Position numbers and translations under genes: made by a program. Below the pieces are notes generated by a model. It searched no databases. It had not been told where the DNA came from and saw nothing but the letters and a program-made list of their open reading frames with translations. Positions 33,869-64,000 of a DNA stretch of 64,000 bases are shown here, piece by piece (position 1 is the stretch's first letter; each line of letters starts with the position of its first letter). This DNA is from Amphiscolops sp. MND2022 (lineage: Eukaryota): positions 33,294,001 to 33,358,000 of the forward strand of contig OZ076410.1 in assembly GCA_964187785.1 (NCBI GenBank), read 5' to 3'.

Positions 33869-34896
33869 TGTCGGAACGTGCATCAAGTTCATTTGATGTG
33901 GTAATGTTAGGGGCGTTCCCTTCTCTATCATTAGAGGATGACTTTTCATTAGACGATATTTTCTCGGTTAGAGCTAGAACTAGATTCGTCAGTTCACTTA
34001 TTTGTCTGTTCATTTCCGTAAATCTCTGATTTACGGCTTGGCGTTCTGACTCGCCACTGAAATCCAACAGATTTCCATTGTCGAACTCGTTTATCTGTTC
34101 TCTCGTGAGAACTTCAGGGACACTACTTTCACGTTCGGTATCGCTATGTCGGTCAGGTCGGCACATGTGCGTTCGCTGGTTTTCTGCCACTTGAGATCTG
34201 GTATTGACCATTTTGAAGAGATATTGGGTTTTTGAGGTTTTATTGAGTAATTGAGAGAATGGTTAAGTATTCTAGTGATGAAATTATATCAAACTGAGAG
34301 GTACGTATTTAGCAAACTGTTCGTAAAACTATCGCAAAATCTTCTGATGGTACAATTTCACTTGGTAGCAATTATGGCGACGTTGGTCACGTGACCACAT
34401 CAACCAATCACATCGCTATTTTCGTTCGCACCTTTGTTAGTAATCGCGCAATATTGTCGCAGCACCAAAATGAAATGTAGTTACGTTGCTATGGTTGCAT
34501 GACTCAATTTGTATGATGATGTGGTTGCACTACTAGCATCATATATGTGAATGGTTAATGTATATAATTGTTTACAGGACTGACTGCACTGAAACGAAAT
34601 CTGATGATGGCGTATCAGCCACATTACTTTCACTTCTAATTAAAATTCACGAAATTAATTTAAATGACATACGTAACTAATATGTGAAATATGGGGGATA
34701 ATAGTAAAGTTATTTAGGGACTGAATAGAAATGAGGCTTTTTAGCAGATTCTAGTTCGAGTTTTATGATGTGGTTGACTTCACCACATTCTTTCCTTTCA
34801 TCATCATCCTTTTACTGTTTGCATTTGTTTTGAGTTCAGGTATGCAGGATGGTTGACCACATCCTTGTTTGATATTTTCATGCGTCAGGCATGACA
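33869..34896 (-). repeat. 5' LTR of element C
   Basis: TGTCATGC...TTCCGACA, direct repeat of 19965-20992. Confidence 0.93.
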
Positions 34897-39314: not shown

Positions 39315-41704
39315 TGTCACGACCCGCTCCCGGTCGTAATTTTACTTGCTGCTCTGGAATACCGGGATTCGGCAGAGGACATGGACAAGGACAGAGTAAA
39401 TACCTTTAAACTTTGTTAAACTAATCAAATCAAAATTCTACTTACAGTACAGTTAAATAAGCGCGAATAATTTTCCAAATACGGAATTCAACGTAAACGT
39501 TACGAAAGATTTTCAGAAATGATTTTAAACTAGCTAAAACTTCCGGTCTAATGTTATCACACGCAACACCGTTTTATTTCCGGTTTTATCTTCTGAGTTT
39601 TCCATTCCAATCTAAATACTAAATAATTTTGCAAATGGGATCATTTTGGCGCTCCACACTAAAATGAAAACATAGAAACGACATATAACTCCGAGATCCC
39701 AACGAAGTCCATAAGATCTAAAGTGTCAGAACATACAAAAATAGAGTGGAAATGTATTCCAATATTAAAGTAGTTGTGAAATATCCACTTAAAACCGCAG
39801 TCAAGTGATTTTAAGTAAATGTTTACAACGTTATGACAGCGTCACTCAACTAGGCTAGTGACGGGCGTTTATATTTTCACGGACCAATAGCGTCGCTTGC
39901 CGGCGGAATTATCCGAGCCGGTACCAGTAGAATTAAGCTTGGTTGCCGCTAGCAACGCTTACTAGCTAAGAAAGAGAATGGAATCGCCTACGCTCTCCGT
40001 TTTCACTCCGCTTGCTGCTGCTGCTCAGCTATAAGCAACCTTAATACGTACGGAGCACCTTCGGAGCAGGTTGTAAAATTGTATTCCGTTGTTCAGCTAT
40101 AGATAATCTTAATACGTAGCACCTACGGAGCGAATTGTAAAATCGCAAATGAGAAATACTATTTCAAACGAAATCCAAACGAAGCTTTTAAATCGACGCA
40201 TTTGAAAGATTTAAGAGTTATGGTTCTTATATAAGGAAAACTGTACTGCAAGGAAGGATGATAGGAATTGCAATGGTATTTTTGTGTTCTGGATTTGTAT
40301 CGTCATGGTAAATCACTAAATCGCGTTGACATTATGTTTTGCTTAGTACTTCCTTAATGGAACAAATCTACTTGGTTGACTATGGCACTTAAAATATCTT
40401 AATATTAATCCTAATGCAAGACGTAAGGTCAACGCTAATTCCTTGTTTTCAAGTCAGTAATAACAGTTGTATTTTATGATTAGAACAATCAGGCTAATGA
40501 CCAAACTTTGTTTATGTTTTGATGAATTTCATGGGTATTGTGTAAAATGTTGAAGTTGCTTTCCACTTATTATTATTACGAATATGTTGCGCTCATCTTT
40601 GTTGTATTCCGTTAAAGTCCCGTTTGGACTTAATTTGTGTTCAGTATAAATGATGTAGTATGCCATTAGCAGGTAATTCATGTGTTTGAATTTCGATTAT
40701 CGTTTCAGCATCGTTTGTTCCTTTTTACCAAACTTCCATATTTTCCTTCAGCTTCTAAGTTGACTCATTCCGTCTCGATTTCGTCGCCATTTTTGAGCGT
40801 CATTCTTTTGCTTCGAACTTCAATCTTCCCAACTTGATTGCTGACTAATTGATCACGCCGGCGTGCCTACGCTGATGAAAATGTCAGGTAGACTTCTATT
40901 TTGCCGCAATTTTGAAGCACAAACAGGAAATGGACCGCCTGAACAAAAATGACTTGAACAAAATTTTACGGAACGCTGACGCAACTAGGAATTTTGATGT
41001 CTGATTTTATGACGCGGGACTGAAATAATATGAATCACTAGCGCTTTTTGTTGAACAAACTCGATTTTTGTGATACTTAGGAATTTTTAGGTGAGGAACA
41101 AATGATGCTGGGAAGGTATAAATATGTAATACATACATGTAAATCAGTTGGTTTTTTAACTTGCTTTGTAACAATCAGTTTGCTCCGTTATCATAACGAA
41201 AACAAATCTTTGAAGAATTCAACCTTTCCAAAGATACTCTCTCTCTCTTTCTCTCGATCAAAATGACAACTAGAAGCAGAAAAGGAAAGCTGTAGCGGAA
41301 TTGGTCTCTGGTGATTTCGAAACCTCTGTATCCGAAAACTTTCCGCCTGAAACCCTTGTAGCTAGTTCTAGCAAGATTCCTAGGATAGAACCAGAAAGTT
41401 TGACTGAAATAAAAACGTCATTAAGAAAGGAGATTATGTCAGACTTGACCAAAATACTCGCGGAAAATCAAAAGGAATTGCTTAAACTGATAGCGCCTTC
41501 AAGGTCTTGAGCATTGATGAGTCTTGAGCATTGATGAGGACATTTTGTTTCTTGTTTAAAGTTTAAACAAGAAACAAAATGTCCTCATCAATGCTCAAGA
41601 CTCTGACTCTGAAACAGAGAACGTTTCCGTAGCAAGGACCTCTACCCCCGTCAAAACTCATAATACGACTAACTCTAAAACAACACCGGCAAATAGTCGT
41701 AACA
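39315..41704 (+). mobile_element. Element D: 2390-bp solo LTR of a Ty3/Gypsy family
   Basis: TGTCACGAC...GTCGTAACA termini; perfect 5-bp TSD ATATG (39310-39314, 41705-41709); ORF1-leader-like frame MTTRSRKRKAV... from 41263 to the LTR end. Confidence 0.85.
41519..41603. repeat. Perfect 42-bp-arm palindrome with 1-nt loop, plus adjacent 17-bp tandem duplication, interrupting the LTR-borne ORF
   Basis: gagtcttgagcattgatgaggacattttgtttcttgtttaaa-g-tttaaacaagaaacaaaatgtcctcatcaatgctcaagactc. Confidence 0.9.
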
Positions 41705-43950
41705 ATATGCAATCAAAGACCAGGACCGGTTGGACAGTATTCATCGAAACACCCACGGCGCCGGGACGTATTTCACCCCTGGAGGCTAAATGAATCTGTA
41801 GCGATGGATTTACCCATTTCCTCAGGTTCCTCCACCTCTGTTGATGCGTTAAGCGACCGATAACTGCTTTCCGTTACAATCCCTCCTAAAATTAGGTTTA
41901 GTCATAGATCCAACTTTCTGATACCCAACCTTGACTTGGACTCTTCGAAATTTATCAAGGGACGTTTTCTTTCGCAATATTTTTGACTCCACATTTTCAT
42001 TTATCAAAACTTTTTTGGAGTTTTGTTGTTTTTCCTTTCTTTTCGCTTAAATATAAGCTTTCTGTTTCATTTCGAACTGTGAAATAGTTCAATTTAGCTA
42101 GAAAAAGTGGAAGACAACCGATTTGGTCATGACACCGTGATGCAATACCGAGTTACAGTAAATTAATATAACCATATAGACCCCATAGTGATGTACTTAC
42201 TGTACGGGTGTTGAAACATTCTCAAATTTGCATGACACTCAGCTTGCATAACGTTAGTCTGAAGAGTTACCAAATAAAATCAAACTGGATATCATTTTAC
42301 ACGAGAATATTGAAGACTAGAGTAGCTCAACCTGTTACATGTCAAAATCTCCCAAATAAAATGGAATCAAAAAAAATTAACTCCGCTTTCCTCATTCCGG
42401 GGGGGATGCGCGCACTTCCCTTCGTCAAACTCAGCTGCTGGACCAGTAGTGGCAGGTCGCTTCGTTTCGTTTCACTTCTCTTCGCTTCGCCCCTGCATTT
42501 GAAGCATAATCGGTATATGAAGCACATTTTCATCTTTAGAGATTTTGACTTAGGAAATTTTGACATATACCCGCCCAACTATTTAGTGTTGACATAGTTC
42601 GAATAGAATTCTTCAACCATGAGTCTGTGTTTATCAGCAAGATGAATGTTGCTTTTAAAATGTATATTTTTGCTACGAAAACAACAAAAATGACTGAGCA
42701 GATGCCACCAAACATATTTCATAAAATTTGAACTTTATTGACAGGGAAGTTAATTCCACCGAAACCATAAGTATATATACTTCTTGTTTATAGTTCTATT
42801 CATGAACTATTGTTTTATAAATACATGTAAAGAATGCAGTGAATTTGATAATTCTTAGTAAAACCTTTCTTATGTGGTTGTGTATTTTTAAGCGTTTGGG
42901 AGCCTCGGCAGGGTCCTTTAGGGCGAGCCTGTAAATTCGAATTCATCCCACCTAAAAATCTTGAAAAATAGTCGCGATCTCGAAAACTGTCCGTTAGATT
43001 TCCCTGGAATTTGCATGCAGCTCTAAATTCAGATTCTAAGAACTGCTGACGTTTTGCTGGCAAAATTCAAATTGTTGGTCAAAAAAGATATTTTTGGTAC
43101 CGAAACTGACGTTTTTTTCACATTTTTCAAAATTGAGAGCCGATATCTCGTTTCCAAGTGGCTGGAGCTGTTCGCACATGAACGTCAGTTTTGTTAAGCG
43201 GTTGGTGAGGAATTCGTACGGTGGTTTTTGTGCAAAATTTACTAAAGTACACCACTAGGGGGTAACCCCTACCCAAACTTCTGCCGAACAAGACCATTTG
43301 GCCTTTTTTGACCAGGTTCCAGCGTTCTAGTATTACCTTGCCAAAAGTTGTGGGACTTTGAAGTTTTTCAAAAAAACTTCATTTTTCCTTGAAATTTATT
43401 TTTTAATTTCAGGCCTCCCAAAGTCAGGAAAAGTCCTCTTTACTAGGATTGCAAGTGAATTCATGCGGAAAGCCCTTGTTCGGAGGAGGAAAATGCCGTT
43501 CAAAGTGCGTTTCTATCTTAACTTGATGTTACCTTACGATGTTTCAAACGTGAGCCTGGTAAGGTGTCGAGATGTCAAGAAACATACATGGGTTTTGACT
43601 TTGAATGTAATATCATCAGAACTCGTGCAATTAACCTCGAAACATCTTTGATTCGGATTTGGTACTGTAGCAACACCATTCAAAGACTTTACACATTTGA
43701 AAATTGTTCATTAAAATCTTACTTCCTCTGAATTGTTATCCAAATACTTGAAACTTTGCAGTACAATCCATCTTCCTTCAAGGGGAGATGGGACTGGACT
43801 CGCTGAAGGCCAGGTACTACGGCACCAAATTGGTTTTATGCGACGCTTTGTTTGCTATTGCGCTCTGCGACAACTAATGTTCAGACTTTTTCTTTGCACT
43901 CTGCTTCACGACAAATGATATACAATACGCCCGTAACATCACCAATCATC

Positions 43951-44695
43951 TATAACAGCCTTTTCTTATAGTATGAAATTATCTTCTTCGTATGGGTTCG
44001 CTGACTGTTATGATAATTTGGAGTTCAGTAATTTAAAATTACTAAGGCTTTAGGACTACCGTAAGAGAGAAATCTTGAGTGAAAGAGAAAAAGTTTTTTT
44101 TGCTTTTTGGGGAAGAATTTAAATTAAAATGAAATCAGAGTTAAGAGATGAAACAAAGTTTTAAATACTTTTACAAGTTTACAAACTAACATATTGGGTG
44201 GACTATGGGTGGCTGAGTTGGAGTTCTGAATTTGTTTCTTCTTCAGTTGATGGTTGTTGTCTTCTGGTTTGTAGCTTCTCCAATTGTTGAATGATTAGAT
44301 ATCGATTTTTATTTTTGTTAAACAAGATTAATAAACGGCATGAACACGATAAAACGGGTTCGAAAGAACAAGATTAAGCTCGCAGAACTCAAAATCTGCA
44401 AATCTGCAATTAATTACACTAGGCTCTGGATAAGTCCAGATAATTGAACAAAAACGTAATTAAATGGGGATCGGAGTAATTGGACAAGATTTAAATGCGG
44501 GGTGTACAAAATACTGTATAAAACACGTTGTAGATCTATCTGTGTAATTATGTGACTGGTTTTGTACTGATAAGCAAATTTGTATGTAACTTAGAAACAT
44601 GAAATGTTTTAAGTGCTTTCTTGTTTTGTTTTGTTGCTCTGGCTTTTGTTTACTAGGGGCCGTCTTTGTTTTCGTGTTACCGCTTGCTTGTCACA
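43951..44695 (-). repeat. 3' LTR of element E (TGTGACA...TGTTATA)
   Basis: Direct repeat of 55680-56425. Confidence 0.95.
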
Positions 44696-44728
44696 CCACT
44701 TCCTTCTTTCTGAAATTGCGTCTCGCAA

Positions 44729-45718
44729 TTATAGATCCATGAACTCGTGAAGATTTCGTAGAAACGGGTCGCAACGGCGACATGTCCGTAGACCAATTTC
44801 GTTTCGTTGTATTCCAGGAAGGCCACAACAAGCATAGACTTCCTTTAACGTGGGATCGAGGAAGATCCGTTTAGCTTCCTTGACAAACGGTATGTATTTG
44901 CTGGCCGTGGTTGTGGCAGCTTTCTTTTTGTCGGGATGTAGTGTATGTACCAGCACGCGGTAGTTTTCCTGGATAATCTCGGCATAAGACGATGGGTTGC
45001 AACCGAGCAGATTGAACAACAAATTATCAGGGGCATCTTCAGGCTCAGGTTGTAATGGTAGTTTTGTAATATGGTGAGCAAGCATCCTTTGTAGAACGGG
45101 GACTTGGCATTGGAAGGCAGCTAAATTCCGGAGCGTGCTGAGTTCTTCAGTGAGCTCTAAAGTCCGTTGCAATAAGGACTCATTCTCCGCTGTAAGGGCG
45201 GACAGGCGTTTTTGGAGTGCTTCGTTAGCTGCCTCTAGCTCTTTGGTAGTCTCCAGTTGCTCACAAAGGACGTCCATGGTCAACGAAGTTTCGCGACGAG
45301 CATCCTCAAATGCTTGATTCAAAGTAGTAACATCATCGAAGCGTTTTGTTAGGAACGCTGCATACTCGTCAGTGTCGACGCAGCATTGAGTACCGGGGTC
45401 AGCGGAATCCGGCCAAACACGGGGAGGGGTTGGCTCACAGAGGCAGCTTGGGGTCGGCTCGTCAACCATGAGACAAGCATCTTGGCTTGCTGGAGGTAAC
45501 ACGCAAATGGCTGTTGATGGGCGCATGAAGCTGCGCTGGTTAGGAGTAGCGTCCACTCGTCGTAGGACAACAGTCCCACTGTGGGGATTAACACGTAGGA
45601 CAGTGTATTCACGTTCGTCCAGAATCTGCACGGTGTCGCCAGGACTGATGAAGGCGATTTCCCAGAACAGGTGTATAGATTTGCTCCTGCACGGCGCTTG
45701 GCGGGGAACCTTTAACAT
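44729..45718 (-). CDS. Intact 329-aa accessory ORF: N-terminal beta-barrel-like segment, coiled coil, C-terminal DnaJ/J-domain with HPD (~45029-44821), CxxC tail
   Basis: LFNLLGCNPSSYAEIIQENYRVLVHTLHPDKKKAATTTASKYIPFVKEAKRIFLDPTLKEVYACCG follows the four-helix J-domain pattern. Confidence 0.8.
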   Translation of the reverse strand: MLKVPRQAPCRSKSIHLFWEIAFISPGDTVQILDEREYTVLRVNPHSGTVVLRRVDATPNQRSFMRPSTAICVLPPASQDACLMVDEPTPSCLCEPTPPRVWPDSADPGTQCCVDTDEYAAFLTKRFDDVTTLNQAFEDARRETSLTMDVLCEQLETTKELEAANEALQKRLSALTAENESLLQRTLELTEELSTLRNLAAFQCQVPVLQRMLAHHITKLPLQPEPEDAPDNLLFNLLGCNPSSYAEIIQENYRVLVHTLHPDKKKAATTTASKYIPFVKEAKRIFLDPTLKEVYACCGLPGIQRNEIGLRTCRRCDPFLRNLHEFMDL

Positions 45719-45905
45719 TACAAAAGATTAAAAGAGACCGATTAGGGTTTTATGTGACAATTTAAAGTGTAAAAAGGGGGGGTTTTGACGACTGTATGAT
45801 GGAAACTGAGATCTTGAGCTACAGAATAATTAAAGCTTTATTTGCGAGAGACAATTCACGGTTTTATTTTGTAGACTGGACACATAGGTATGGACAAGAA
45901 TTAGG

Positions 45906-46098
45906 GCACGGACACGTGCATTGACTAGGCACAACACGGAAACGTGTGGAGAGGGCACGGAAACGTGCAAGGTGAGGACTACACGGAAACGTGTATGTTA
46001 GATAACACATTTTTTTTGGGCACGGAGACGTGCAGAAAAGGGGCAGAGATAAGTCTGCGTTAGTGTCCATCCAAATAAAACGGGGCACGGATACGTGC
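45906..46098. repeat. Six copies of (G/A)CACG-GANA-CGTG(C/T) dyad between env and the J-domain ORF
   Basis: Copies at 45906, 45934, 45955, 45980, 46020, 46085; outer pair is G-C in four and A-T in two. Confidence 0.85.
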
Positions 46099-46110
46099 AC
46101 AAGGTGGTGA

Positions 46111-48584
46111 CTATGAGTCACGGCTAAAAGTCACCATATTAGGATAGTTATTTGTATTAATACTTTTATATATACATATATAGAGAGAGGGTGTCGAGGC
46201 ATTTAAAGGGTTGTAGCTATGTCGTCGTCTCGGAGTAGTGAGGAGCAGTAACATCTGGATAAATTCGTGGAGGAATAATTGGTGGAACTGTATCGGAGGA
46301 ACTGAGTCACGCGTCATTTGTAAGGTTTCCTTAGCCAGGCCTTGTAGGGCAAGAAATTCGTTCTTTGTCAGATAGAGGAACGGCGCGTTATTCTCTATCA
46401 GTGAGGGGTTTTCACTGTCGTCCAAGATGTGGATGAATTGGCCTTGGGAACTTGTGAAGAAACGTTGAGGATGAAGAAACAGACGTTTCCATTGTCTGCG
46501 GAAGAGTGTGAAGCTGATAGTAAAAGTTAACAAGGAAAGTGTAATGGAAATGCCGGAAAAGAGTGCGGCTGTACGATAAGGCAAATACGATTGCAGGGCA
46601 TGTGATGTGACTGGTGATATTGACGAGTAATGATCTGCGATGGGTTTAGTTAACTCATCAATTGCGGTGTTTGTCATTCTATGGACATCAGGAAGCTCCG
46701 CAAGCTCCATCTGGACGCTGCCGATAATGGATTGGCGGGCTTCTCCAAGCGAGTAGGCATGGAAAACATTGCTAGACTGGGGAACATGCTTGAACACTTG
46801 TTCAAGTGACGGGGTAAGGGCAACAGTAGCTACAAACGGTTCTGGACGCGTTTCACAGAAGTCCATGTCAGGCGACAGTACAAGATCGCCCTGATTGAAA
46901 GAGAGCGTACTGGTACAGCTCGGGCGCATTATACAAGCTTGACACATTACAGTGGTGACTGAGATACCATGTAATCGGCTATCGTTTTTCACTTGCAAGA
47001 CCGGATCTCTTGAGATTATGTGGTACAAACCATCCGCTAAATAGAATGCCTGTGGGGCATCTGGTAGGAGTACAGATTGAACGGGACAGTTCCTCAGGCT
47101 AGGAATGTCATAGTTGTAGAGTAGGGAACTCGAAGTGTTTCGTCTGTCGTAGTAGAGAAACCCTTGCGACAGAATTTGATCCTATTATTCCCTGAGCACT
47201 GTTGTAGTGTGGAACCGTCGAGTTCCGCAAAACGGGAGTTGTCCGTAGAAACTGCCAAAAAGGGCTTTTGAAGCTGGTACAGAGATGCTGTCTTGTTGTC
47301 CCCATTCGGTTGATGCAGGGGGATCGCGTGATACACATCAAACGTGGAGGACTTGGAATTCATAGGAAATCCGAGCACTACTGAGATGCCACGAGGAATC
47401 AGTGTGACCTCTAGCACGATGTTAATTTCATAATAGATAGCTTCGTACCCTGGTTGAATAGCTGGCGATAATTTAGTACCGCGGCGGACTTCATCGTCAG
47501 AGAGTTCTTGCACGATGTCCGCAATCTCCTGTGGTAAGAGAAACTGGGGCGTAATGTGGCCACTCGCGAGAGATGAGATGGTGGAGAACAAGTTAGTCTT
47601 GTAAGCGTAGAAAGCAGCTTGGTAAGATTTGATGTGAGTGTAGAGAGAACCCATGTCTGATATGAAGTTACGAATCTCCTGAAGGAACTTTATATGGACC
47701 GTTTCTAATCTTTGGCACTTCTTGTGTGCTACTATCGTACCTTTTATGGTGTGTACCTCTTTATGTATTCTGTGTAAATGCTCATTTACTTGGTCCCTTA
47801 TTTCTTGCAGATTATTTTGTGTTGCTTTGACTTCATTACCGAGAAAGAAGAAATTTTTGTCATTCCTTGCCTGCACGCGCTGCAGAGTCAAAATGGTCTT
47901 CTGTTGGGTATCCAAGACAGCTTCGACATCTCGCGACAACTGGCTGTTATCGCTACACATGTTGAATATTGATAACGCTGTACATGCAGCGTCCTTGATC
48001 GGATCACCCAAGATTAATCCGGCGCCTGCTCCAATAGCTGCAACAGCGCCAACAAACCGTTTCTTTCGGGGAGCAGAAACTTCTTCTGTCCTATAAATCT
48101 GTGGCAAGAATGACTTCGTTATCTCGGAGAGGCCATTTTGGTCCTTGACCGATGCTCTCATCTCCTTTTTTACCAGATTGGCTCTTTCTTCCAACTGCTG
48201 GACCACTAGACTGTGGGTTTCGTTTATCTTCTCCCAATAACAGCTTGTCTGGGCGTACATACCGCCGACTGCTATCGTTTGTACTTTAACTAGAGCCAAC
48301 AGGCGTTCGACCTCAGTAAGGTTCACTTCCGGTAATTTCGGAAACGGGGAAAACACACAAACTTTGCTCTCACTCTCGGAGGTGACAGCTTGGTACTTGA
48401 ACAGGAACGCTGCGCCTTTCTTGATTACAGGGACTTCAGGATTGTCATTGAGGAGGGTAGAGTAATGCGTAATGGCGACGCAAACTTGAGAAGTGAACAA
48501 CCAGCAAAGGAGGGTGAACACTTTGTCGTTTGGAAAATGTCGCCTGAAAGTAAGAGATATGCGTGAAGGTTTGTATGTGTCCAA
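46111..48584 (-). pseudogene. env: env-like class I fusion glycoprotein (signal region, furin site, fusion peptide, heptad repeat, TM), frameshifted at ~47135 and probably ~46295
   Basis: VFTLLCWLFTSQVCVA; APRKKR|FVGAVAAIGAGAGLILG; heptads QLSRDVEAVLDTQQKTILTLQ; LASGHITPQFLLPQEI; TM TAALFSGISITLSLLTFTISFTLF. Confidence 0.85.
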
Positions 48585-50681
48585 TTGGTATCGTAGAAAT
48601 AGATAGAGGATATAGTGTACAAGCTAATGATTGCTAATTCTTCCCGTTTTATACTTTTTGTTGTTTTTTTGTATATACTAAAGGAGGGAGATGCGAATTC
48701 AGGTGTGTTTGCTGTTACGCTTCTGTTTAGAAGTGTTGGGGGAACTGAAGTCAGTGACATCGTTTGGGAGATTTGCTTTCCATAACGGTTCAGCTCTAAG
48801 CTGGGCTTGCGTTGATTCGCGAAGTGTGCGTGATCTTGGTTCGGGGAGGTGGAGAGTACGTGCTGCCTGATGCATAGCATGTCGGTACCAAGGCGAGGTT
48901 TCATTTGAGGGAAGATTTGATGAGACGGGGCTGGTCGGGAGGCTTTTCGTTAACAGGGGTTTGTTGGGGGAGGAATTGAGCCAGCTGGGTGATGTATTCT
49001 GGTAGGAAGGTTGGTTGGGAGAAATAGAGGGAAATCGTTGAAAAGGTGATTCTGCATGAAGAGGTCCGGATGTTGGGGTGGTTGTTGTGTGAGTGGTGGG
49101 AGCGATTGGGGCTGTTGGTGACGCAACAAAAGGAGTAGAAGGTGCAGATAAGGGGGTTCCCGGGGTAGCAGATGAAGGTGCGGGCGCGAAAGAAAATGGC
49201 CAAATACATTGATCGTGATCAAATGCAGAAGCAGTTTCAGGGTTTTCTTTACTATGAGGTTTTGGGTTTGCAAACTGACTTGTATCTCGGGTTGGGACAT
49301 TGGATGTAGGTGGGGGTTCTTTGAATGGTTTCAAGCGATCGAAATGAACCACCAATTCCTTTTGAGTTTGTTGGTCTTGAATCCGATAAGTTACGTCGTT
49401 GATGTCCTGCAAGATGACATAGGGGCCTTTCCACGGGCTGAAGAACTTCGATGTTTTGCCTGTATTGTGAAGCAAAACTTTCTGTCCTGCTTCCTAGAGG
49501 GGTCCGTGAACTTTGCTGTTATAGATGGCGTTTCGTCTCTTCTGGTTTTGATTGAGAGCGGACCGAGCCAGTTCGTAAGCCTTTTGGAAGGCTAGTTTGC
49601 GCGCGGAGACAAATTCATTCGTATTTGACGCTGGTTGATCTTTTGGGTTGGGGTACATGAAATCGATGGGTAATGAAATTTCTTGACCATAGACAAGAAA
49701 GTGGGGCGTGTAGCCAGTCGATTCATGTACGGAGGTACGATATGCCATCATGACATAAGGCAATTGTGTTGACCAATTGTCCTGCTCGTCGTTCACACAC
49801 TTGGCAAGCATGCTTTGAAGGGTCCGGTTCATCCGCTCGATAACAGCGTTGGACTGCGGTCGAAAAGCCGTGGTACGAGTTTTCTCAATCTGGAGAGATT
49901 GCATTAACAGTTTGAAGATTTTTCACTCAAAATTACGACCTTGGTCACTGTGGATGCTATAAGGACATCCGAAGCGGCAAATCCAATGTTGTAGCAACGC
50001 ATTGGCAGTTGTAGAAGCTGTTTGATCTGGAAGTGGAATGGCTTCGTACCATTTCGTGAAATGATCTCCAATTAGTAGTATGTGCTGGTTTCCGTTAGAC
50101 TGCGGCAAAGGACCCATGAAGTCAATACCAATGTGATGGAATGGGTAGCTAGGGTGCCAATCCGAGAGAGAATGCAGGTGTTTCTTTGGAGGGTTGGCCC
50201 TTTTTTGGCATTATTCACATCTACCAATGAATAATTTAATATCTTCCTTGAAATTAGGCCAGTAGAAACGTTGTCGTACTTTTTCAGTGGTTTTGAATAC
50301 ATCTAAGTGTCCTCCAGTAGGTGAAGCGTGAACTGATGAGAGTATTTCCTGGACCATATCAGGTGGTACTATCTGCTGCAAATAATGATCTCCGGTTTTG
50401 ATCAGTTCGAAACGTCGGCATAGGATGCCATCTCTAATTAACAGGCTCTTTAACTGATTGGCCAGTCGCCAGGTTAGACGGGGAGAACCCTGCAACTCCT
50501 TGTTGCTCGGTGTTGTACCATCGGTTATCCACTGATGAACAGTTTTCAGTGCTGGATCTTTCTGCTGGGCGCTTCGCAGAGGGTTTGAATCGTTATCTTG
50601 GAGGACTTTAGTCCCTTGAGAAGGCTCACTGATTTTTAGAGGTGACTTGTCTTCAGGAGCCAGTTGTTTTGTAACTTCTGG

Positions 50682-51096
50682 TAGAGTGAGAACCGTCACT
50701 CGGATTACTGAACCTTGAAACACATCTTGTATCATGTCCCTTACTTTCTTCCAATCCAATTTGTCGAGACCACATCCAATTCTGGGCAAGCTAATGCGTG
50801 TGACATTATTTGTTTCGGCATGGGTTCTCAACGCTATGAGAGAGGCTCTAAGGTTCTTGTATGTAGGTTTATGGAAGTAACGTCTTTTCGTTATTAGGTG
50901 GTACAGGAATCGCTGAGACTGGTTAATCACCTGGGGCCAAAAGGGTGCGTTGTTAACCATTTCCTTTGTAGGTATCTTCGTCGGGAATTGCAGTTTTAAG
51001 TCCTGAGCAATTCCGGAAGACATTTTGAAGTCAGCCGATATGCAGTGCGCAATGGAGTCGGCGACCTTCAAAAGGTCTCCTTCCTTCTCGGTGTAG
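50682..51096 (-). other. TARG1/OARD1 (C6orf130)-type macrodomain in frame within pol, between RNase H and the integrase zinc finger
   Basis: EGDLLKVADSIAHCISADFKMSSGIA...FLYHLITKRRYFHKPTYKNLRASL...ISLPRIGCGLDKLDWKKVRDMIQDVF. Confidence 0.9.
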
Positions 51097-53441
51097 TTAG
51101 CTTGGGTTGATCGGTTTGGCCATTCGGACTCGTCTTCGTAGTAAACTGTTCCTCCCGGCTGATCAACAGGTTCCGGCTGTGTCGAGACTATATTCAATGC
51201 TCTGGTTGGCGTGCGGGATAGACCGTCTGCGTGTCCAATGGACTTACCTGGCCGATGGACAACTTCGTAGTTAAACGCGGCAAGTTTCTCCAGCCAGCGG
51301 GCTGTGAGCGCGTCTGGGTCTTTGAAATTATGTAGCCACTGTAACGCACTATGGTCGGTGACTATCCTGAACTGTCTTCCCAACAGGTAATGTCTAAAGT
51401 GTCGCGTGAAGTTTACAACTGCTAGGAGTTCGGGTTTAGTAGCTGAATACCTCATTTGAGCTTTCGAGAGCGCCTTAGAGGCATAGCAGATTGCTCGTTC
51501 TTGTCCATCTTGTACTTGCGCGAGAACGGCTCCCATAGCAGTCATGCTAGCGTCAGAATACAGTATGAAAGGCTCCTTCATGGAGGGCAACGCTAAAATT
51601 GGTGTAGACACCAACTTTTGTTTCAGTGCTTCAAAGGCACTCTGGGCCTCTGGTGTCCACTGAAAGGGCGACTTGCTTTCACTAGCTTTATGCAAGGGTC
51701 GGGCTATGTCTGCAAAGTTTTTTACATAGCGGCGATAATAGGAACACAGACCCAGAAAAGACTTCACTTCCGTTGGGCTTGTCGGAATTGGGAAGTTTTT
51801 CACAGCTCTTACTTTCTCAGGATCTGCCTCGAGTCCATTTCTGCTGATGATATGTCCTAAAAAAGGGACTCGTGCTCGGAAGAATTCACATTTTGTCGGG
51901 TTGATTTTGAGTTTCGCCATATGAAACCTTTCAAACACTTGCCGAAGTTCTTCAGCTGTTTTCGACAAGATGATGCAATCATCCAGATAGGGGACGGTTA
52001 TTTTCCACGTCAAACCCATTAGAACACATTCCATTAGGCTTTGGAAGGTGTTCGGACTCCCAGTGAGACCCATTGGCATTCGGAGCCATTTGAAGGACCC
52101 AAACGGGGTGCTGAAGGCAGTTAGGTCTTGACTCTTGATGTCCATGGGCAATTGATAAAATGGACATATCGATTGTGGTAAAATAGGCACTCCCTTCCAG
52201 TGTGTCAAAGATTTCTTCTATCGACGGGATTGGCCAACAAGACTTAATGGTCTGGTTGTTAAGCTGCCGGTAGTCGATGACTAGTCGAAGTTTACCATTT
52301 TTCTTCGGGACTAACATAGCTGGTGCGCTATACGGGCTGTGACAAGGCGTGGTCAGGTCCTTTTCAAGGAAAGCATCGAGTTTTTCCCTTAGGTCCTCTT
52401 TATAATGAAGTGGCATCCGCCTATTTGGTAATTTCACAGGTCTGGAGCCGGGATACACGTCGATTTTGTGGGACGTTACATCACACTTACTTATATCCCA
52501 TTCATTTTTGGAGAAGACGTCGGAGAATTCATCGATTAATTTGTCGAACTTTTTCTGCAAGGAAGTGGACAACTGCTCGTCTACCGCTGTTTTCACGTGC
52601 CTCAGGTCATATTTATCATCCAATTTATCAAACTTTGCTTCTTGCGTTTCCCTGGATCTACTCATCCCAACATTTTGTATATGTTCCTTGGGTACGACTT
52701 CGGAAGTACCTAGTGTCGTATCTTTGTATACTGTAATTGGTTCATCACCGGAATTTTCAATAATCACCGGGATTACATCCGCTGTGAGGTTAAACAAGAT
52801 ATCAGGAGCCGTCAAGGCTTTTTCTCCACTGAACCGTTCATTTGGTTCAAATGCGGCCACCAGTTCGATTGGTGGACACTTCCAGTCCGGGATGAACGCT
52901 GGCACCACTACAGAGTGGCCCGAAGGGATTGAAATAGTATCCTGAGAAACTACGCGGAAAACTTTATTGTACGGAATTTCAAACTTTTTGTGGTAAAGAG
53001 GCACAGAAATTGAGTCGCTAATCAGTAGTTTCTTTTTCGAGAAGAGCGGGTCACATTTGTGATCTTCAAGAAAATCCAGGCCTATTAGGCAGTCTGATTC
53101 GGATTTGACCAACACATGAAAAGTGTGATCATACACTCTATCTGCTATTCGTACTGGTAAGCTAACCGTACCCCGCGTTTCAATGGGTAATTGGTTAGCT
53201 GCCTTTAATTGGGTGGTCGAAGGTAACAACTTGAGTGGGGTTTTAGGCTGTAAGGAGTCGAAAACCGAGCTACTAAGGCAAGATACACTGGCACCACTAT
53301 CGCAAACGGCTTCAATGGTGCGATCCATAATTTGGATTTTGACGAAGACACTTCGATGATCCACTACTGCATGCAGCAATTGTGGCTGTGGGTCACTGCT
53401 TATTTCATTGTCTGCGCTTCGACCCGTCAGTGTAGACGACT

Positions 53442-54633
53442 CTAGTTTAAATTGTTGTTTTGATTGCTCCGGCATTCATTTTTGAAATGCCCAACTCGGC
53501 CGCACTTGAAGCAGGCCTTACAATCGCGAGAGTCGTGATTATTGCGCTTACAGTGTTTACAGGGCTACCTTTTACTATTGCTTTTGTTCGTTTTCTTTGG
53601 CTCAGGCGAGCGTCCTCGGTTCTGTTGGTTGTTCTGATTCTTTTTGTTCCCTTTATAGTTTGTCTGGAAACGTACTGATTTGCTATTATTGGATTCAACA
53701 CTACTTGATCGAGAATCGCGCGATTTCTCTGTAGGAGGTATCGCCTTGTTCAATTTTTCCGCTAAAGTTCGGACAAACTGGTCCATCAAGTCGGTACTGA
53801 TCTGTTCTGGTGGATTCCGTGAGACCAGGTTTACAGCTGAATCAGAAGCTTGTGGTGGTGGCGGGGCGCCTTTTTCAATTTCTAGAAAAGAGTTAAGTTC
53901 CATTGCCATGGTATGGGCATCATCAGCCGTTGCCGGTTTGCTTTTTTTTGAGTTCCCACCGGAGGGTGGAATCACTGAGGCCTTCGATAAAACTGGTGAG
54001 GACGATTTGTTCGACAAGGTGTGGGAAGGCACGATAGGCCCTTCGCGCCAGTGTGCGCACATCGCACAGAAAGGATGCAATATCCTGATTCGGTTGCTGC
54101 CGGGCAGCTTTTAACCTTGCCTTTAAAATGTCGACATTCGTCGTGTAGTTTTGTCTGAACGCGTCCACGAGTAGTGTAAAGTCTGTTTGTTGTGCCACCG
54201 ACAAGGTGGTGAAAAAGTGCAATGCATTTTGCCTAAGACGCAGAGCAAAGTAGTGGGGACGGTTGTCATGGGTTGTAGAGTACCAACCCGACATGAAGGC
54301 AGCGGTATTAAACTGTTGTAGATAGTCTTCAAAATCACCAGAGCCAGTGAAGCTCTCAGGCATCAGACATGAAGGCAACGGGGTCGAATGAGGTGTTCCT
54401 GTGGTTCCCATGGGTGTGGGGAACGGTGTACTAGTCGGAGGAAAAGCAGAGCTAGATGTTCCTGCTGTTGCAGTAGGGGTCGTTCCAACCGACGTGGTTG
54501 TGGTTGTGCAGGCTCCAGTTCCGCCTGATCCTGTAGGTGGAGAAGGCGCGGCCGTACTAGCTGCCGTAGTGGTAGGCGTGGCGGCGCTACTAACGGGTGT
54601 GGACATTGTTAATTGTTCTATATTTTGCGTCAA
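53442..54633 (-). pseudogene. gag: gag of element E (capsid-like domain, two CCHC knuckles; frameshift in an A8 run at ~53945 and TAG at ~53565)
   Basis: PESFTGSGDFEDYLQQF; ARQQPNQDIASFLCDVRTLARRAY; CKHCKRNNHDSRDC; CFKCGRVGHFKNEC. Confidence 0.9.
53445..53451 (-). promoter_or_regulatory. -1 frameshift slippery heptamer T TTA AAC at the gag/pol junction of element E
   Basis: gag frame ends AAT TTA AAC TAG; pol continues in the -1 frame (...QQFKLESS). Confidence 0.8.
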
Positions 54634-55658
54634 CTGGGGTTATTTAGCACGAAGGTGTCAACATACGATAATCCGGTACGTAGCTTTCGAGGAATTCGAT
54701 GAAGGCCGTCCACAATTTAGCTAGCAACAAGAATATTACTCGGTCGTTTACAAAAACGGGGGTAAAGGAGGGTTGCACGTTACTAAATATCGCGTTGCGT
54801 GATCCAGTCACTTCGTGTTGCTGATAATGAATGAATTCTAACCGGTAATGAAGACTCAATTGATGCGGTGTTAAAAGCGGCTCCGGTCGGAACAAGCGTG
54901 GTATTCTGTAGGCTCGTGCCTGACAGAAGTAACAAGGAATTAGGAGGTCTCTTCGCGTAGCGCTAGGTGAAGCCGAGAGAGGAAAGCTGAATAAGAACAT
55001 GAACGCGAGTTATTACATTAAGGTTTTAAATGCGACTCGGGCACACATACTGTGCGTGCGTTGTACTTCAAAAACTAAGCCAAAGACTGCTATTATCAAA
55101 AGCGACAAGGCTAATGTCGTTGTTGCTAGAAAGAAGGTAAATAAGCACACTGGAGGTGAAACAGCAGAGCGGTGGCTTCTATATGGTAACGGCAACGACG
55201 TCGGACGGGACACAAAAGCTTGAACTGGGGGCTGGACAGCGCTAGGATACGTCGGTGCCATTTTCGCAGTTAAACCAAATCAAAGTTAGGCAGACCATAG
55301 TGATCGAAAAGGCCATAGGGGCAAAGGAGTAAAGAAAAGCAAAATAGAGAAAGACTTTTTCGTATTTTTCACTAAATACTTACTTCCAAGTTCTTAGCTT
55401 AGGGCCGTTCTTATTGGGTCAGCCAGACTCGCAAAACTGCGGGGTTACTCAGCAAACTGCTGGAACTAGACACAGACCGAAGTCCGGAAAGAAGTCTTAC
55501 AGAAACTAGGCACGGATTAAAATCCGGTGAAGGATCTTACTCTGGCATGGGCACTGTCCGAACAGTGTTGAAAACATGAAGGGAAGGGTCTGATGACAAA
55601 ACTAAATGAGGCTTCTGCGTTGATTTTAGAATTTTCGAAGAGATTTTTCACTCGAGAT

Positions 55659-55676
55659 ATCCCACTCCTGTCACCA
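55659..55676 (-). promoter_or_regulatory. PBS TGGTGACAGGAGTGGGAT (tRNA-Leu-like)
   Basis: 3 nt downstream of the 5' LTR; complement ATCCCACTCCTGTCACCA resembles eukaryotic tRNA-Leu 3' ends. Confidence 0.85.
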
Positions 55677-55679
55677 TTT

Positions 55680-56425
55680 TATAACAGCCTTTTCTTATAG
55701 TATGAAATTATCTTCTTCGTATGGGTTCGCTGACTGTTATGATAATTTGGAATTCAGTAATTTAAAATTACTAAGGCTTTAGGACTACCGTAAGAGAGAT
55801 ATCTTGAGTGAAAGAGAAAAAGTTTTTTTTTGCTTTTTGGGGAAGAATTTAAATTAAAATGAAATCAGAGTTAAGAGATGAAACAAAGTTTTAAATACTT
55901 TTACAAGTTTACAAACTAACATATTGGGTGGACTATGGGTGGCTGAGTTGGAGTTCTGAATTTGTTTCTTCTTCAGTTCATGGTTGTTGTCTTCTGGTTT
56001 GTAGCTTCTCCAATTGTTGAATGATTAGATATCGATTTTTATTTTTGTTAAACAAGATTAATAAACGGCATGAACACGATAAAACGGGTTCGAAAGAACA
56101 AGATTAAGCTCGCAGAACTCAAAATCTGCAAATCTGCAATTAATTACATTAGGCTCTGGATAAGTCCAGATAATTGAACAAAAACGTAAATAAATGGGGA
56201 TCGGAGTAATTGGACAAGATTTAAATGCGGGGTTTACAAAATACTGTATAAAACACGTTGTAGATCTATCTGTGTAATTATGTGACTGGTTTTGTACTGA
56301 TAAGCAAATTTGTATGTAACTTAGAAACATGAATTGTTTTAAGTGCTTTCTTGTTTTGTTTTGTTGCTCTGGCTTTTGTTTACTAGGGGCCGTCTTTGTT
56401 TTCGTGTTACCGCTTGCTTGTCACA
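55680..56425 (-). repeat. 5' LTR of element E
   Basis: Direct repeat of 43951-44695. Confidence 0.95.
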
Positions 56426-58589
56426 CATCTTTAACGTCAACGCCACATACACACCTGCCCTTCGACGGCGTATACCAAAATTAGGCGTTAGCACGGTAGC
56501 TGCTAGGTGCTTTCAAGTATATTAGATCGCCATTATCGGAAGATGCTCGTTAGTGCAGTTGGGGATGATTCAGTCAATTGCTGCAAAAAGTACAGATCAA
56601 GAAGTTGATTCAACAATGTTTAAACAATGTCCCGATTTTTGCGAATGCTCCACATTTCGTGATCAAGTCCATTTTTATTTCATCTCATTTTTTCTTATTT
56701 AAGTTTTGGCTGAATTTCAAGCTTTTTAAAAATTAAATACCAAATAAATGGAGAAGTCATCAAAAAGCAAAATTTCGAATCAAGTGAGAGTTTGTTCTGA
56801 TGTCACTTTCCCCAACCGCCTAAAGGGAACCTGAACCCCAGATGAGGATTGTCTCCGAGTTCCGAAAGGTCTCACAAAGAGGAGCTGAAAACGTTCTCTA
56901 GTCAAACCCAAGTATCGAAATTTCCAAATGCAGGGAGCACATTTTCAGGTACAACCTGTACCATATCGATGGCGCAAACTATAAATTTTATCTATAATTT
57001 TGGGTGTTTTTCTGCAACCCGGCGGCCTAAAAATAGTCTTCATAACGTACAGGACGTGTAGAGTTTGAGAAGATAATGCCACACGATTTGGAACTCAACT
57101 ATATAGTTGATAGAACGTCAACCAGTTACTATTTCAGGTGTTCACATTTCGTTAAGATGTTACATTCCAGTTTGAAAAAACTTCTTCATTGCAGTACTCA
57201 GAAAGTCCAAAGTTGGATAACTCGAAATCGAAAGAAGTAAAAAGATGTTTCATTTTGAAATTTTGTGCTAACGAAAGTGACATCTACTTCCATTTCGAAA
57301 AACGGACAAGCGTTTCTTCAGAAAACCAATTTGTAGAATGTCCAACGCCTCTAAAGATGATAGCTTGTACAACTTGATTATAAGAATCAAAAGGAAAGTT
57401 TCCCATTTTTGTATATCAATGCAACCATGATTCAGGTTAGTGTCGAAAGTCTCATCCACAAAGTTTTCTTGTGGGCTGGAAAGGTTAATAGAACCACGAA
57501 AGGCAAAGTATACACTCTGTAGGCTCCAGTCAGCGTAATAGGCTGAGAAAATATCAGATGAAGAATTTAGTAGCAAAGCTGCGATTCCATATTCACAGTA
57601 TATTCTAGATTAGCAAAACCTCAGAGCATCTGAAACTCCTTATATAGGTATTATAATGCAACTGAAAACTGAAATTTTCATTGTGAAAGTAAATGGAATC
57701 TTCGAGGTTTGAGAATAACACGGCAAATTATGGAGAAATTTTTTCGATGAGTCGTTCGAGCAGTCAGTGGGCCAGTCAATCAAAAAAACATAGGCTCTGA
57801 CGTGCTAAGCGCAATTAAGCTTAGCACGTCAGTAGCCTGCTGTGGATGAACACTCGAGAACTAGAACATGGGCACTTGCCTCGGGCATCTTTCAGAGGAA
57901 GAATTTCTACTGCATCACAAATACTCTCGAAGATATTTACCTTAGAAAACCAAACAGGCTAAAATGCCGCCTTTGATCAAGGGACATTTTTCCGGCAAGA
58001 AATGCACCAAGGATTAACTTTAGCAAGATAAAAGTTGTTACTCGATAAATAAGGCTCCGACCAAATTTTAACTACTAACCAACTTGATTGCCAAATTTTT
58101 CAATTTCGCAGAGATTTATGAGAGTGTTTGTACTTGAAAGGGGCACTTTGTTGTACACCCACACTTGACGTACACCCAGGCACCCCTGCTACCCCTTCAT
58201 GAACCTGTCCACAGGGGGAACAACTATCCCCATTTGTGCACACGCTAATGTTAGCGTGAACGATGAAATTGTTAGCTAAAGCTGAAACACATCTAAAGTT
58301 TTAAAGGAAACAAGCCGGGAACGGTCCAAATTGGCGCCATATCTAAGGCTCAAAAATAGCAAAAGAAATTCAAAGTGTCAAGTATTCTCTTTTACTTTAC
58401 AGTACCCGAATGAGGAAAAAAATTTTGCGAAAAAAATTTACATAGTGCCAAAAAATGTAAAAGGAGGACCATTTGGGATTTTTTGAAAATCCATTCTGTT
58501 ACAAAATATAAAAAAAATGAAGGGGGAACATTTTGAGACATTGAAAAAAGGCTCACAAAGCTGAAATAACATGCACAACAAATTGATTA

Positions 58590-60775: not shown

Positions 60776-63700
60776 TCATTGGCAAGGGTTGTCGACTACA
60801 GTTGTTTGGTCTTCCAATGCTTCACTCAACGTTTCTGCCAGCATGTCTGAGAGCGGCAACTCTTGTTGGTCCAAGCTAGGAAGTTCGTTAAGTTCCAGCT
60901 CAATGTTAGCTGCTTCGGCTTGTGATAGAGATATGTCGTCTGGATTGTCTAGTGGCATTGTTGTGTCATTGGAAGGAGCAATGGGAATTTCTGCTGGTCT
61001 CTGATTTGTTTGGTCGGGGTTGTTAATCAATACATCTGTTCTGACTGTTGCCGTGGGCTGCGAGGTGCTGACTTGACTCAAAGAAGACACTAGGGAAGTA
61101 GAAGTGCCTTTGACAGAAACCTCCACGTGCCCCGCTGCCTGTCGTTCTGCGGTAGAGCCCGCTGGGCGTGGCTCTGGCAGCTGGTCTGCAAGGTGCTGGT
61201 GTCCGTATTTCATGAGTATCTCTTAAAACGTTCGGACTGCGGTTAGGTAACTCTCGTAGACATAGTTGCCTTCTTCTCTCTGCCTGGCTATCAGACTTAG
61301 GAAGATTTCCATCGCCATCTTCGGAATATTTGGCATTGCTTCGCTGATTGGCAAAATTTTTCTGTTAGGCTCTTTGGCGAGTTTGGGTACAGTGGCGTTC
61401 AGTATCTGGCAGCATTGATAAACTGTTCGGTCTACCATCAGAGGGTCTGCCCAACAAGTGGTGTTAGACAAGATTGTGGCCGTGTTAGCTTGTGTTAACA
61501 GAACCCGGTTCTGTTCGCGGGTTATACATTCTGAAAGTGTCTCTGATGGTTCTGTGCTGCAAGCTTTCCAATGTTGAAATTTTTCATCTTCCTCCCAGAC
61601 GCTGCCTGGCATTTGTCAGCGTCCTCAAAATTGCGAGTTCATACCAACTGGCGAAGTTTTGTAAAGCACCAGTGTTGCTGTTTATGGCTGCATGTAGCCA
61701 TGCCACCGGGTGGAGCTCTAAGGACATAGGCATAGCGCACCGCACTCTAGCTCAGATTAAGGTGACGAAGTTGTGTTCGACTTGTTTTTTATCTTTGATG
61801 GTATACGCCATCGGGGGCCAGAAAATTGCAAAGTTGCGTACTATTGTCTGAAAGTCAGGTGGCCTTGTGTCATCTTCGGGATCTACGAAATGTCAAACTC
61901 AGAGTGTGGGGGTATTGGCAGCTACTCTGAGTGGTTGCGTGGGATATCGTAGTGCCATCACGGAGCCAATTATGGGCCATGTGATCGGAGCAATTACTGG
62001 AATCATCTCTTCTGTTTCCACCAGAACTAAATTTGCTATTTCTAAAGGAAAGAGAAAACCTGGCCGGTTTTTTTCATTGTCTTGCTGAGTCGGTGGATTG
62101 TCCAGGGTGCGCATGACAACCGACAGGTTCATCCAGGCTGAATAGATCCAGGCTAAGATTGTTTCAACATTTTCAACCAATTGTGCGCGCAATTTCAATG
62201 CTCCTGCAGGGTCCATTGTATTAAGAATTGCGGATATCCACTCTTTTTGGTTCCTTGCATACACTAGAAAGCTAAATAAGCTTGAGTTGGCTTTGCTCAA
62301 TGTCAATTTCTGCACCAGTTGCACAGGACTTTTGTAGAAAGAATCCAGGCCAACTGCCATCAGGTAGGCCAGATTTTCGCTGATCGTGGCTCTTTGCATC
62401 GCTTCTATGTATAGTTTCACTTGCTTTCAAGCCGCTTTCACTTTGCACAACCGTTGGCACCCAAAATGGAGAGACGTTATATAGAAGGATGGGAAAGGGT
62501 ATATGTGGTGTCGTTCTTCCACTTGCATCAGATTTTGTTGCAGTGTTTTGTGCCAGGACTGGTACGAGTGTTTGGGGTCGACTCGATTCTCACGTCCTAT
62601 TTTGCGGGCCAATATTGCTAGTAGCACCAAAGTAGGGGAGACTATGGTAGGTTGCGAGTACACGGCCTGCGTGGCCACTGGGAAGACGGTGGCATCAGTT
62701 CGAGTCTGTTTGATTTCCTCAGTTTTCATGAAGAGAGCTAGCAGCTCTTTGTGAACTTTTGCATCATGTGTCTTTTCATCCAGGGTTGGTTCGTCTCCCT
62801 TCGCGAACCACAAGTTGTCAATAATGCTCATTTTTTCATTTTCATTTGGTTCCTTGACTTGGCGTACCCTGTTTTCATCGAAGGTTTGGTGTGCCATCTG
62901 CATGGCCAAACCCAGGCAGTTGCCTCATCAGCTATCAACTGAGAATTGCCCTCGTATCCGGTGTAAGCCTGTAAGGCTTTCGAGAGTTCAGCCAGTAATG
63001 CGGGATATGAATTTTCGCACGGGCGCCAAGTCATGGCACTAATCCTCAGGTTTGGGGCAACAATGTAGAAATACATGTTCTGTGCATGAGTTGCTTCCGA
63101 TAGTAAATATAGCAATTGTTGCAACGGTTTGGAAAGATATACGTATCCCGGACATGATACGAAAATCACGCCTGCCGTTGGCTTTTTCCTTTGTGTTCGT
63201 TTAGTCACGCTCTTCATTACTTTGATGTATGACACTACTTCACTGGTCATTATTTCCTCTGTCAACCTTCGATTTTCTCCATCGAAGTACTTCAGGGTTC
63301 CTCGAAGTGCTAAGTGGTCTATCACGTTGCTATATATTAACAATGGTGGGAATGGGATTGTCTCAGTGGGGTTGGGAGCCGGGCCGAGACCTTGCAGGTC
63401 ACTTCTGTCATATCCTCTAACGACGAGCAAGGTAGGTTCATAACTCTAACATCCATCACTGTGTTATTCATGTTTGACGTTGCTTTCATCGTAGAGTCCA
63501 CGAACAAGGCAATCCTTGTTTTTTGCAACATCTCTTTACCCATGGGGAGCAGTGTAGCTAAGTCCCTTATGAAAACTCGTCTCCGCAACAATTGTTCATC
63601 GTATCTGGCTGGTCGTTGTGTTCCCAACTTTAATTCACGAATGGCGAATTGTCCTTGTGTAGCTCTTCTTTCACTCTCTCGAACCATGGGGGGATTGCGA

Positions 63701-63939
63701 TCCATTATTAATGTTGGTTTCTTCACGGGCCTGAAGTAATGCTTTCTAATCGAGGCCTTTTCTAATTCTTTTGTATTCTCTGGTTCTCCTTTGCTCGTGG
63801 CAGTTTCAAACTTTTGGATATTCAAACCCGAATTTGAATTTCCCGATTGGACTTCCCGCTGCAGACGCACTGCGTCTCTGGCAGTAAGATCGTACTGTCT
63901 TGTCTCCGTCTGTGACAGGAGCGCCTCGGAAAGCCTCAC
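60776..63939 (-). pseudogene. Long decayed ORF (>1000 codons when joined) with an SGNH/GDSL-fold-like segment; probably belongs to a mobile element extending past the window
   Basis: Six ORF pieces joined by in-frame stops (62427, 61223) and frameshifts (~63400, ~62920, ~61600-61900); IALFVDSTMK / NLPCSSLEDM / LLIYSNVIDHL blocks. Confidence 0.5.
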
Positions 63940-64000
63940 TCTTTTAGCCTCCGGCTGTTGTACGGGGGAGGGGTTCGGGCTTGTGTTAGCAACGTCTGAA

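Follow-up and report, generated by a model that had tools for sequence, protein, structure and literature searches.

A 64,000-nucleotide stretch of the Amphiscolops sp. MND2022 genome (assembly GCA_964187785.1, contig OZ076410.1, forward-strand positions 33,294,001 to 33,358,000; hereafter the window, within which all positions are counted) contains a 12.5-kb minus-strand element (56425 to 43951) with the layout of an envelope (env)-bearing Ty3/Gypsy retroelement. We read it, with a probability of roughly 60%, as a recent and since-decayed copy of an env-bearing Ty3/Gypsy family that is organised like a complex retrovirus, with the expression strategy and mechanism set out below. A macrodomain of the TARG1 class lies inside Pol, between RNase H (RH) and integrase (IN), and a conserved extra gene lies between env and the 3′ long terminal repeat (LTR), as in complex retroviruses. 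This combination is real and family-wide and has apparently not been described before, and the accessory gene is a more surprising part of it than the macrodomain. The features of the element, in its own 5′ to 3′ order, are as follows.

56426..56429, minus strand: upstream copy of the target-site duplication (TSD), GATG
55680..56425, minus strand: 5′ LTR, 746 bp, TG...TA
55659..55676, minus strand: tRNA-Leu-like primer-binding site (PBS), TGGTGACAGGAGTGGGAT, starting 3 nt past the 5′ LTR
54607..55658, minus strand: leader, about 1,050 nt
53442..54606, minus strand: gag, zinc knuckle at the C-terminus; frameshift near 53950, stop at 53565-53567
53445..53451, minus strand: TTTAAAC heptamer where gag and pol overlap; candidate site of −1 ribosomal frameshifting
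48699..53475, minus strand: pol, comprising protease (PR), spacer, reverse transcriptase (RT), RH, macrodomain, and IN with a GPY/F-type C-terminal module
50682..51095, minus strand: TARG1/OARD1/DarG-class macrodomain within pol; Lys84-equivalent codon at 50888, Asp125-equivalent at 50765
46217..48543, minus strand: env, likely class I F-type, with an acceptor-like site at 48543
46163..46182, minus strand: TATAWAWR matches, the sole ones on the sense strand of the element, inside a TA run
45906..46098, no strand assigned: six dyads RCACG-N4-CGTGY, sense-strand spacers all T-N-T-C
44729..45709, minus strand: accessory gene, with an acceptor-like site at 45709
44696..44711, minus strand: polypurine tract, AGAAAGAAGGAAGTGG, abutting the 3′ LTR
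43951..44695, minus strand: 3′ LTR, 745 bp, TG...TA
43947..43950, minus strand: downstream copy of the TSD, GATG

Pfam matched PR, RT, RH and the zinc finger, core and C-terminal module of IN, in the PR-RT-RH-IN order that is characteristic of Ty3/Gypsy. Among solved structures the RT-RH region is by far the closest to Ty3 (E = 3.4e-50, the next being 8.8e-31), and retroviral entries follow at 2e-24 or weaker, so that the RT is not of the retroviral type. By its sequence, the element is Ty3/Gypsy (Metaviridae-type) and falls outside the Retroviridae. The first-pass annotation had proposed a ‘complex’ endogenous retrovirus (ERV) lineage; the env, the macrodomain-bearing Pol and the extra gene are indeed family-wide, but the retroviral assignment does not hold. 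The spacer between PR and RT (52690-52974) is conserved and beta-rich. Its likeness to a dUTPase was by eye and found no database match, and we do not count it as a module because ordinary Gypsy Pols share it.

The macrodomain matches human TARG1 at E = 1.9e-32 and DarG at E = 1.3e-10 (below the cut-off), with a weak match to the Pfam Macro family (E = 0.017). Of 42 rows, at about 40–69% identity, 41 retain both residues of the Lys84/Asp125 catalytic pair named for TARG1 (PMC9411070; here and below, papers are cited for the parts covered), as in TARG1-class hydrolases. The element's domain shares fold class and catalytic pair with human TARG1/OARD1 and bacterial DarG, from which it differs in being embedded in a polyprotein. 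Among the best 120 of 2369 Pol matches, a macrodomain follows RH in all 41 with RH identity of at least 66%, 32 of which are long enough to show IN beyond it, and in none of the remaining 79. The Pol query included the macrodomain and therefore favoured carriers, although a close non-carrier would still outrank the distant 79. The carriers form one clade with 100/100 support in an RT-RH tree of hand-picked rows (14 of 45), and again one clade (28 rows) in a quick 107-row tree; their sister group, of four rows, has a short RH-IN bridge. One cluster, P0032 (80 members), has an intact 1598-aa Pol with the macrodomain in place. P0109 has a long RH-IN spacer, which contains no macrodomain.

Whether this enzyme would serve defence or housekeeping appears about even on the sequence. 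In the second case, which we regard as plausible without favouring it, the macrodomain would clear PARP-made ADP-ribose at DNA breaks or read ADP-ribosylated chromatin for integration. TARG1 reverses thymidine-linked ADP-ribosylation of DNA (PMC8501950) and acts on acidic residues (PMC8120803), the domain adjoins IN, and two distant Pols carry a macrodomain after IN, which is the position of the chromodomain in other elements (PMC13524379). Against this, the kept catalytic pair argues against a pure reader, and the nearest look-alike clusters are mostly phage macrodomains, a conflict context. As an observation in its own right, the macrodomains of these two Gypsy Pols (P0072 and P0094, 2 of the 79) are of the TARG1 class with both catalytic residues, and branch outside those of the macro-carrier family; this may be a second placement or a second gain.

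The accessory protein consists, in order, of a KOW/Tudor-like barrel, a linker, a coiled coil, a J-domain with its HPD motif and a Cys-rich tail. Pfam DnaJ matches it with 32.3 bits (cut-off 27.8). The structural model of P0002 (predicted local distance difference test, pLDDT, 83) has a five-stranded barrel at about residues 14–75, a loose linker with a CxC motif, an 87-residue helix, the J-domain and the Cys-rich tail. Its J-domain has the J fold (Z 8.8, root mean square deviation 2.5, 74 residues aligned) with HPD between helices II and III, and its barrel resembles the KOW module of Spt5 (root mean square deviation 2.2 over 57 aligned residues, Foldseek E = 0.016), with Tudor and KIN17 similar. 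The prediction of a homodimer scored 0.41, compared with 0.00 for the best of three controls, with contacts at residues 132–222, agreement between runs in at least 59% of contacts and pLDDT of at least 58, the predicted form being a parallel coiled-coil dimer. Among solved microbial structures, 21 of 30 homodimers and none of 23 monomers attain the homodimer mark; the corresponding eukaryotic figures are 17 of 29 and 0 of 30.

A word search placed 31 clusters in the accessory family; among 50% representatives there were 151 matches at E ≤ 0.001 and 91 at 1e-10, the weakest being ordinary DnaJ proteins. The tail cysteines are kept in 32–44 of about 50 rows. Apart from DnaJ, no named family was matched in Pfam or the ESM Atlas (best 0.80, uninformative). 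Seven of 30 non-self matches come from contigs of exactly the length recorded for a listed env (six) or Pol (one) match, with 0.014 expected by chance, a signal which at best means the same contig rather than adjacency. Individual records are more specific: P0398 has the C-terminus of Env followed by the N-terminus of the accessory protein in a single open reading frame (ORF), the accessory ORF of P0327 extends into the LTR, P0028 aligns to the window across the dyads, starting at 46057, and so has the translated repeat upstream, and P0341, from a subfamily of about 50% identity, has four translated dyad repeats upstream of the accessory gene.

The accessory gene has no start codon of its own; its 5′ edge is a splice-acceptor-like site that shares the phase of env. 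Both acceptor-like sites read AG|G, with the G as third codon base in each. In 20 rows an F(C)FR-type motif, as encoded by a pyrimidine tract with a terminal AG, is conserved immediately N-terminal to the barrel of the accessory ORF, and in 16 of 20 hand-picked rows the next 60 residues contain no Met. Because the acceptors share a phase, a single upstream exon could supply the start codon for Env and for the accessory protein alike. In Drosophila elements, env is spliced to an AU dinucleotide or to a short peptide (10.1101/2023.08.03.551782).

An unlikely but live rival is that the accessory gene uses an internal promoter, with the TATA at about 46170 and a short intron before 45709, in which case the dyads would be sites for host transcription factors and the accessory protein need not bind them. 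It stays live because the lone TATA-like cluster (46170-46182) sits just upstream of the dyads; in addition, AT|GT sites lie between this cluster and the 45709 acceptor, each dyad has two-fold symmetry and the length of the spacer is conserved, and foamy viruses offer a precedent. Such a promoter has also been shown for env of the Oikopleura Tor elements Tor3b/4b (PMC4402516). However, the TATA is part of a TA run, nearby donors are weak, and the acceptor phase shared with env suits a common leader exon.

The dyad occurs six times in the array and nowhere else in the window. Perfect 5+4+5 dyads numbered six, compared with a mean of 0.3 and a maximum of three in 1000 shuffles of the array region. 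Each of the six folds into a 5-bp hairpin (z = −4.6 for the region versus 200 shuffles), two copies carry a G-C to A-U double change in the stem, and the period of the array is 49 bp. Separately, the T-N-T-C spacers coincide with the motif named for the DNA ADP-ribosyltransferase DarT (PMC8120803), whose mark TARG1 removes; the match is probably a coincidence.

The folding and the double change, together with the binding of nucleic acid by the KOW modules of Spt5 and NusG, would also suit a Rev/Rex-like protein whose barrels bind the dyads as RNA hairpins for export, packaging or splicing control, an account which we consider rather doubtful. The YVSVP seen in some of the translated repeats of P0341 could further mean a U-G wobble. 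The z value is not independent evidence, since any dyad folds, the two A-U copies may be one duplication given the 49-bp period, and Rfam gave no match to the region at E ≤ 1.

No more probable is that the accessory protein acts apart from the dyads, as a co-chaperone for the assembly or uncoating of Gag particles or for Env. The J-domain has its HPD, and host J proteins and Hsp70 take part in capsid assembly and disassembly in many viruses. This would leave unexplained both a barrel of nucleic-acid type and the retention of dyads upstream of the gene in divergent subfamilies, and a protein with no signal peptide cannot fold the Env ectodomain. Finally, it is very improbable that the macro and J modules were captured by this copy alone or arrived in it as nested insertions, the outcome that would have undone the first-pass annotation: although this copy is decayed, both modules are family-wide, the macrodomain is clade-restricted with its catalytic residues kept and present in all the close Pol relatives, the intact P0032 Pol largely refutes such a capture, and the J-domain gene belongs to a large family with the same neighbours (env, dyads and LTR) at other loci.

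The mechanism that we favour is then as follows. Genomic RNA would be translated into Gag and, via a −1 frameshift, Gag-Pol; the TTTAAAC heptamer is a candidate for the frameshift site. Subgenomic RNAs would give Env and the accessory protein, their 3′ exons being in one phase and taking the start codon from an upstream exon. The macrodomain would be packaged with Pol and strip ADP-ribose from RT and IN, or from cDNA, while reverse transcription and integration proceed. As a parallel dimer, the accessory protein would grip with its two barrels a target to which the J-domains bring Hsp70. The adjoining dyad array, as DNA or RNA, is the likeliest target because a two-fold protein adjoins a conserved two-fold array, although dyad-targeting is the weakest step of the proposal. 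Counter-defence, Hsp70 recruitment and regulation through the dyads are thus functions that we infer from sequence and models. The fullest version, in which an invertebrate Gypsy lineage independently turned complex, a dimeric regulator reads the six dyads through paired KOW-like barrels, its J-domains aim Hsp70 at transcription or RNA-export complexes, and a virion TARG1 defeats a so far undescribed host ADP-ribosylation defence against retroelement cDNA, seems to us improbable as a whole.

Several points weigh against the reading proposed here. In this copy, no open ATG precedes the best donor-like site of the leader (GAA|GTAAGT at 55383), and we found no convincing strong in-phase donor that env and the accessory gene could share. 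Common small barrels also reach Z values like the 7.5 between barrel and Spt5 KOW, only 35 of the 54 rows that cover HPD keep it intact (many of the rows look decayed), and the score of the coiled-coil dimer may reflect resemblance to coiled coils of known structure. The linkage seen at other loci is indirect, coming solely from protein records, and the accessory gene may be absent from some env-bearing subfamilies, since its 31 close clusters compare with 285 for env. Defence is just one reading of the macrodomain because TARG1-class enzymes have several substrates. The Env model, made for the relative P0153, is poor (pLDDT 53.5), and for this reason the support for an F-type ectodomain is moderate.

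In its layout, env (285 relatives matched) has a signal-peptide-like stretch, an RKKR site (48057-48068), a Gly/Ala-rich hydrophobic fusion peptide and a long heptad region, followed by a Cys-rich part, a transmembrane helix and a tail with a YPD motif. It is likely, but not proven, to be F-type. Pfam Baculo_F was matched in four of 38 aligned members (best E = 3.4e-8), and the P0153 model gave 25 matches in BFVD, including baculovirus F (E = 8.4e-8). Against the PDB, Foldseek found none at E ≤ 0.001 for this model (best Newcastle disease virus F, E = 0.012), the Env sequence profile gave chance coiled-coil matches only, and VIA-align returned only helical bundles. Of 30 long Env members, 24 have a YP-acidic/hydrophobic motif (46220-46260 here) within their final 60 residues; we take the YPD motif to resemble ESCRT late-domain motifs, which are normally found in Gag.

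The first-pass annotation had described a complete element with LTRs about 99% identical and ending in TG...TA, a perfect 4-bp TSD, a tRNA-Leu-like PBS, a leader of about 1 kb and the order gag, pol (PR-RT-RH-macro-IN), env, dyads and J-domain gene, and most of this was borne out. The LTRs are 98.9% identical (seven substitutions and one indel), and on the coding strand both read TGTGAC...GTTATA instead of the usual TG...CA, which is a typical trait but does not define the family. GATG does flank both ends, but a length of 4 bp depends on the assumed TA end of the LTR; 5-bp AGATG fits equally well if the LTR ends one base earlier. The complement of the PBS matches two tRNA-Leu 3′ ends at 10 of 12 bases (PMC13524379, supplement). 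LTRs, tRNA PBS, polypurine tract and short TSD are all Ty3/Gypsy (Metaviridae) traits that the element shows. ARAGORN found no tRNA genes in the window, an Rfam scan of 43900-56500 gave no matches, and no second copy of env, the macrodomain or the accessory gene was found elsewhere in the window.

As for completeness, the structure is whole but every ORF is broken. In addition to the two gag lesions, pol is shifted in frame near 52161 and interrupted by stops at 50211, 49923 and 49494, env has frameshifts near 47131 and 46300, and the accessory gene has one near 45660, giving five frameshifts and four stops overall. By simple arithmetic, the LTR divergence predicts about 0.5% substitutions and about six indels across the 9.2 kb of coding sequence. 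The nine breaks therefore fit neutral decay after insertion; assembly error could still be their source. The copy is therefore young and structurally whole, yet unable to code. This defective state, the barrel with its long coiled coil and the shared acceptor phase had been overlooked in the earlier reading. Clusters with intact-length Pol (P0032) and Env (P0153) do exist, seen here as separate records.

The window also contains other elements. A second LTR element at 19966-34896 has 1027-bp LTRs that are 98.2% identical, a Leu-type PBS as in the main element, minus-strand gag/pol and a long 3′ region with plus-strand ORFs (22565-26177), which had no Pfam match and one of which has a CxxC...HxxxxH finger. 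Finger-bearing ORFs at 3910-4770 and 23080-23751, downstream of two other integrase genes, match each other with E = 4e-7. Other Gypsy families in the window may thus carry accessory genes of their own, BED-finger-like by eye. There is a perfect palindrome with 42-bp arms at 41519-41603, and an 800-bp stretch (19062-19861) with 47-bp terminal inverted repeats resembles a miniature inverted-repeat transposable element. A G+C-richer block at 61899-63999, with minus-strand ORF pieces and no clear Pfam match, is probably another repeat element.

Gypsy elements that carry an env are widespread, being found in most animal phyla (PMC13524379). With the ‘errantiviruses’ of Chary and Hayashi in that paper, the element shares gag-pol-env between LTRs, an F-type env placed after pol (here with moderate support), furin site and fusion peptide, tRNA-Leu among the known PBS types, and recent multicopy families. 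Their broad definition, which takes in both F-type and gB-type ectodomains, also asks for uninterrupted gag, pol and env, and these are not seen in this copy. Their RH-IN bridge contains mini or pseudo-RNase H domains, where the present element has a macrodomain, and the parts of that paper covered describe no fourth gene after env, where it has the accessory gene. ‘Macro’, ‘DnaJ’ and ‘accessory’ are absent from the main text as covered, and in the supplement rows covered ‘macro’ appears in species names only. Drosophila gypsy, ZAM and idefix also have an F-type env expressed from a spliced RNA with the start taken from an upstream exon, whereas the passages covered mention no macrodomain or 3′ J gene in these insect ERVs (10.1101/2023.08.03.551782). 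The accessory ORFs described for the MDG1 group are short (sORF1/sORF2) and mostly upstream of gag (PMC11952523, as covered).

Outside Gypsy the likenesses are partial. Basta et al. in 2009 reportedly described teleost epsilon-like ERVs in which macro-domain ORFs are occasional extras (cited in PMC4977317). These fish retroviruses likewise have a macrodomain in a retroelement, but they belong to the Retroviridae and not to Gypsy. The comparison with complex retroviruses is one of layout, by analogy only, with no sequence or fold link to the accessory gene and with an RT that has Ty3 as its much nearer match (E = 3e-50, retroviral entries 2e-24 or weaker). In complex retroviruses (foamy Tas/Bet, human T-cell leukaemia virus Tax/Rex, lentiviral Tat/Rev) env and the 3′ LTR are separated by a regulatory gene, which depends on splicing or an internal promoter for its expression, and there is a repeated cis element. 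Polyomavirus T-antigen combines a J-domain with a targeting module and so aims Hsc70 at a complex; the use of a J-domain is alike, but the architecture is unrelated, here being barrel, coiled coil and then J. We found no description of a Pol macrodomain or accessory gene in env-bearing Gypsy elements in the literature searched (Repbase, GyDB, Dfam and subscription journals lay outside the search). Since some transposon polyproteins carry annotated macro-type domains, the macrodomain by itself may be nothing new.

A dedicated regulatory gene downstream of env is generally held to distinguish the complex retroviruses of vertebrates. If the reading is true, a Gypsy lineage with a conserved and deeply diversified post-env regulatory gene would represent a convergent origin of this organisation. 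A TARG1-class domain with its catalytic pair fixed in Pol would point to ADP-ribosylation acting on the replication of animal retroelements, and the predicted barrel, coiled coil and J-domain protein suggests a new route by which a mobile element may direct Hsp70.

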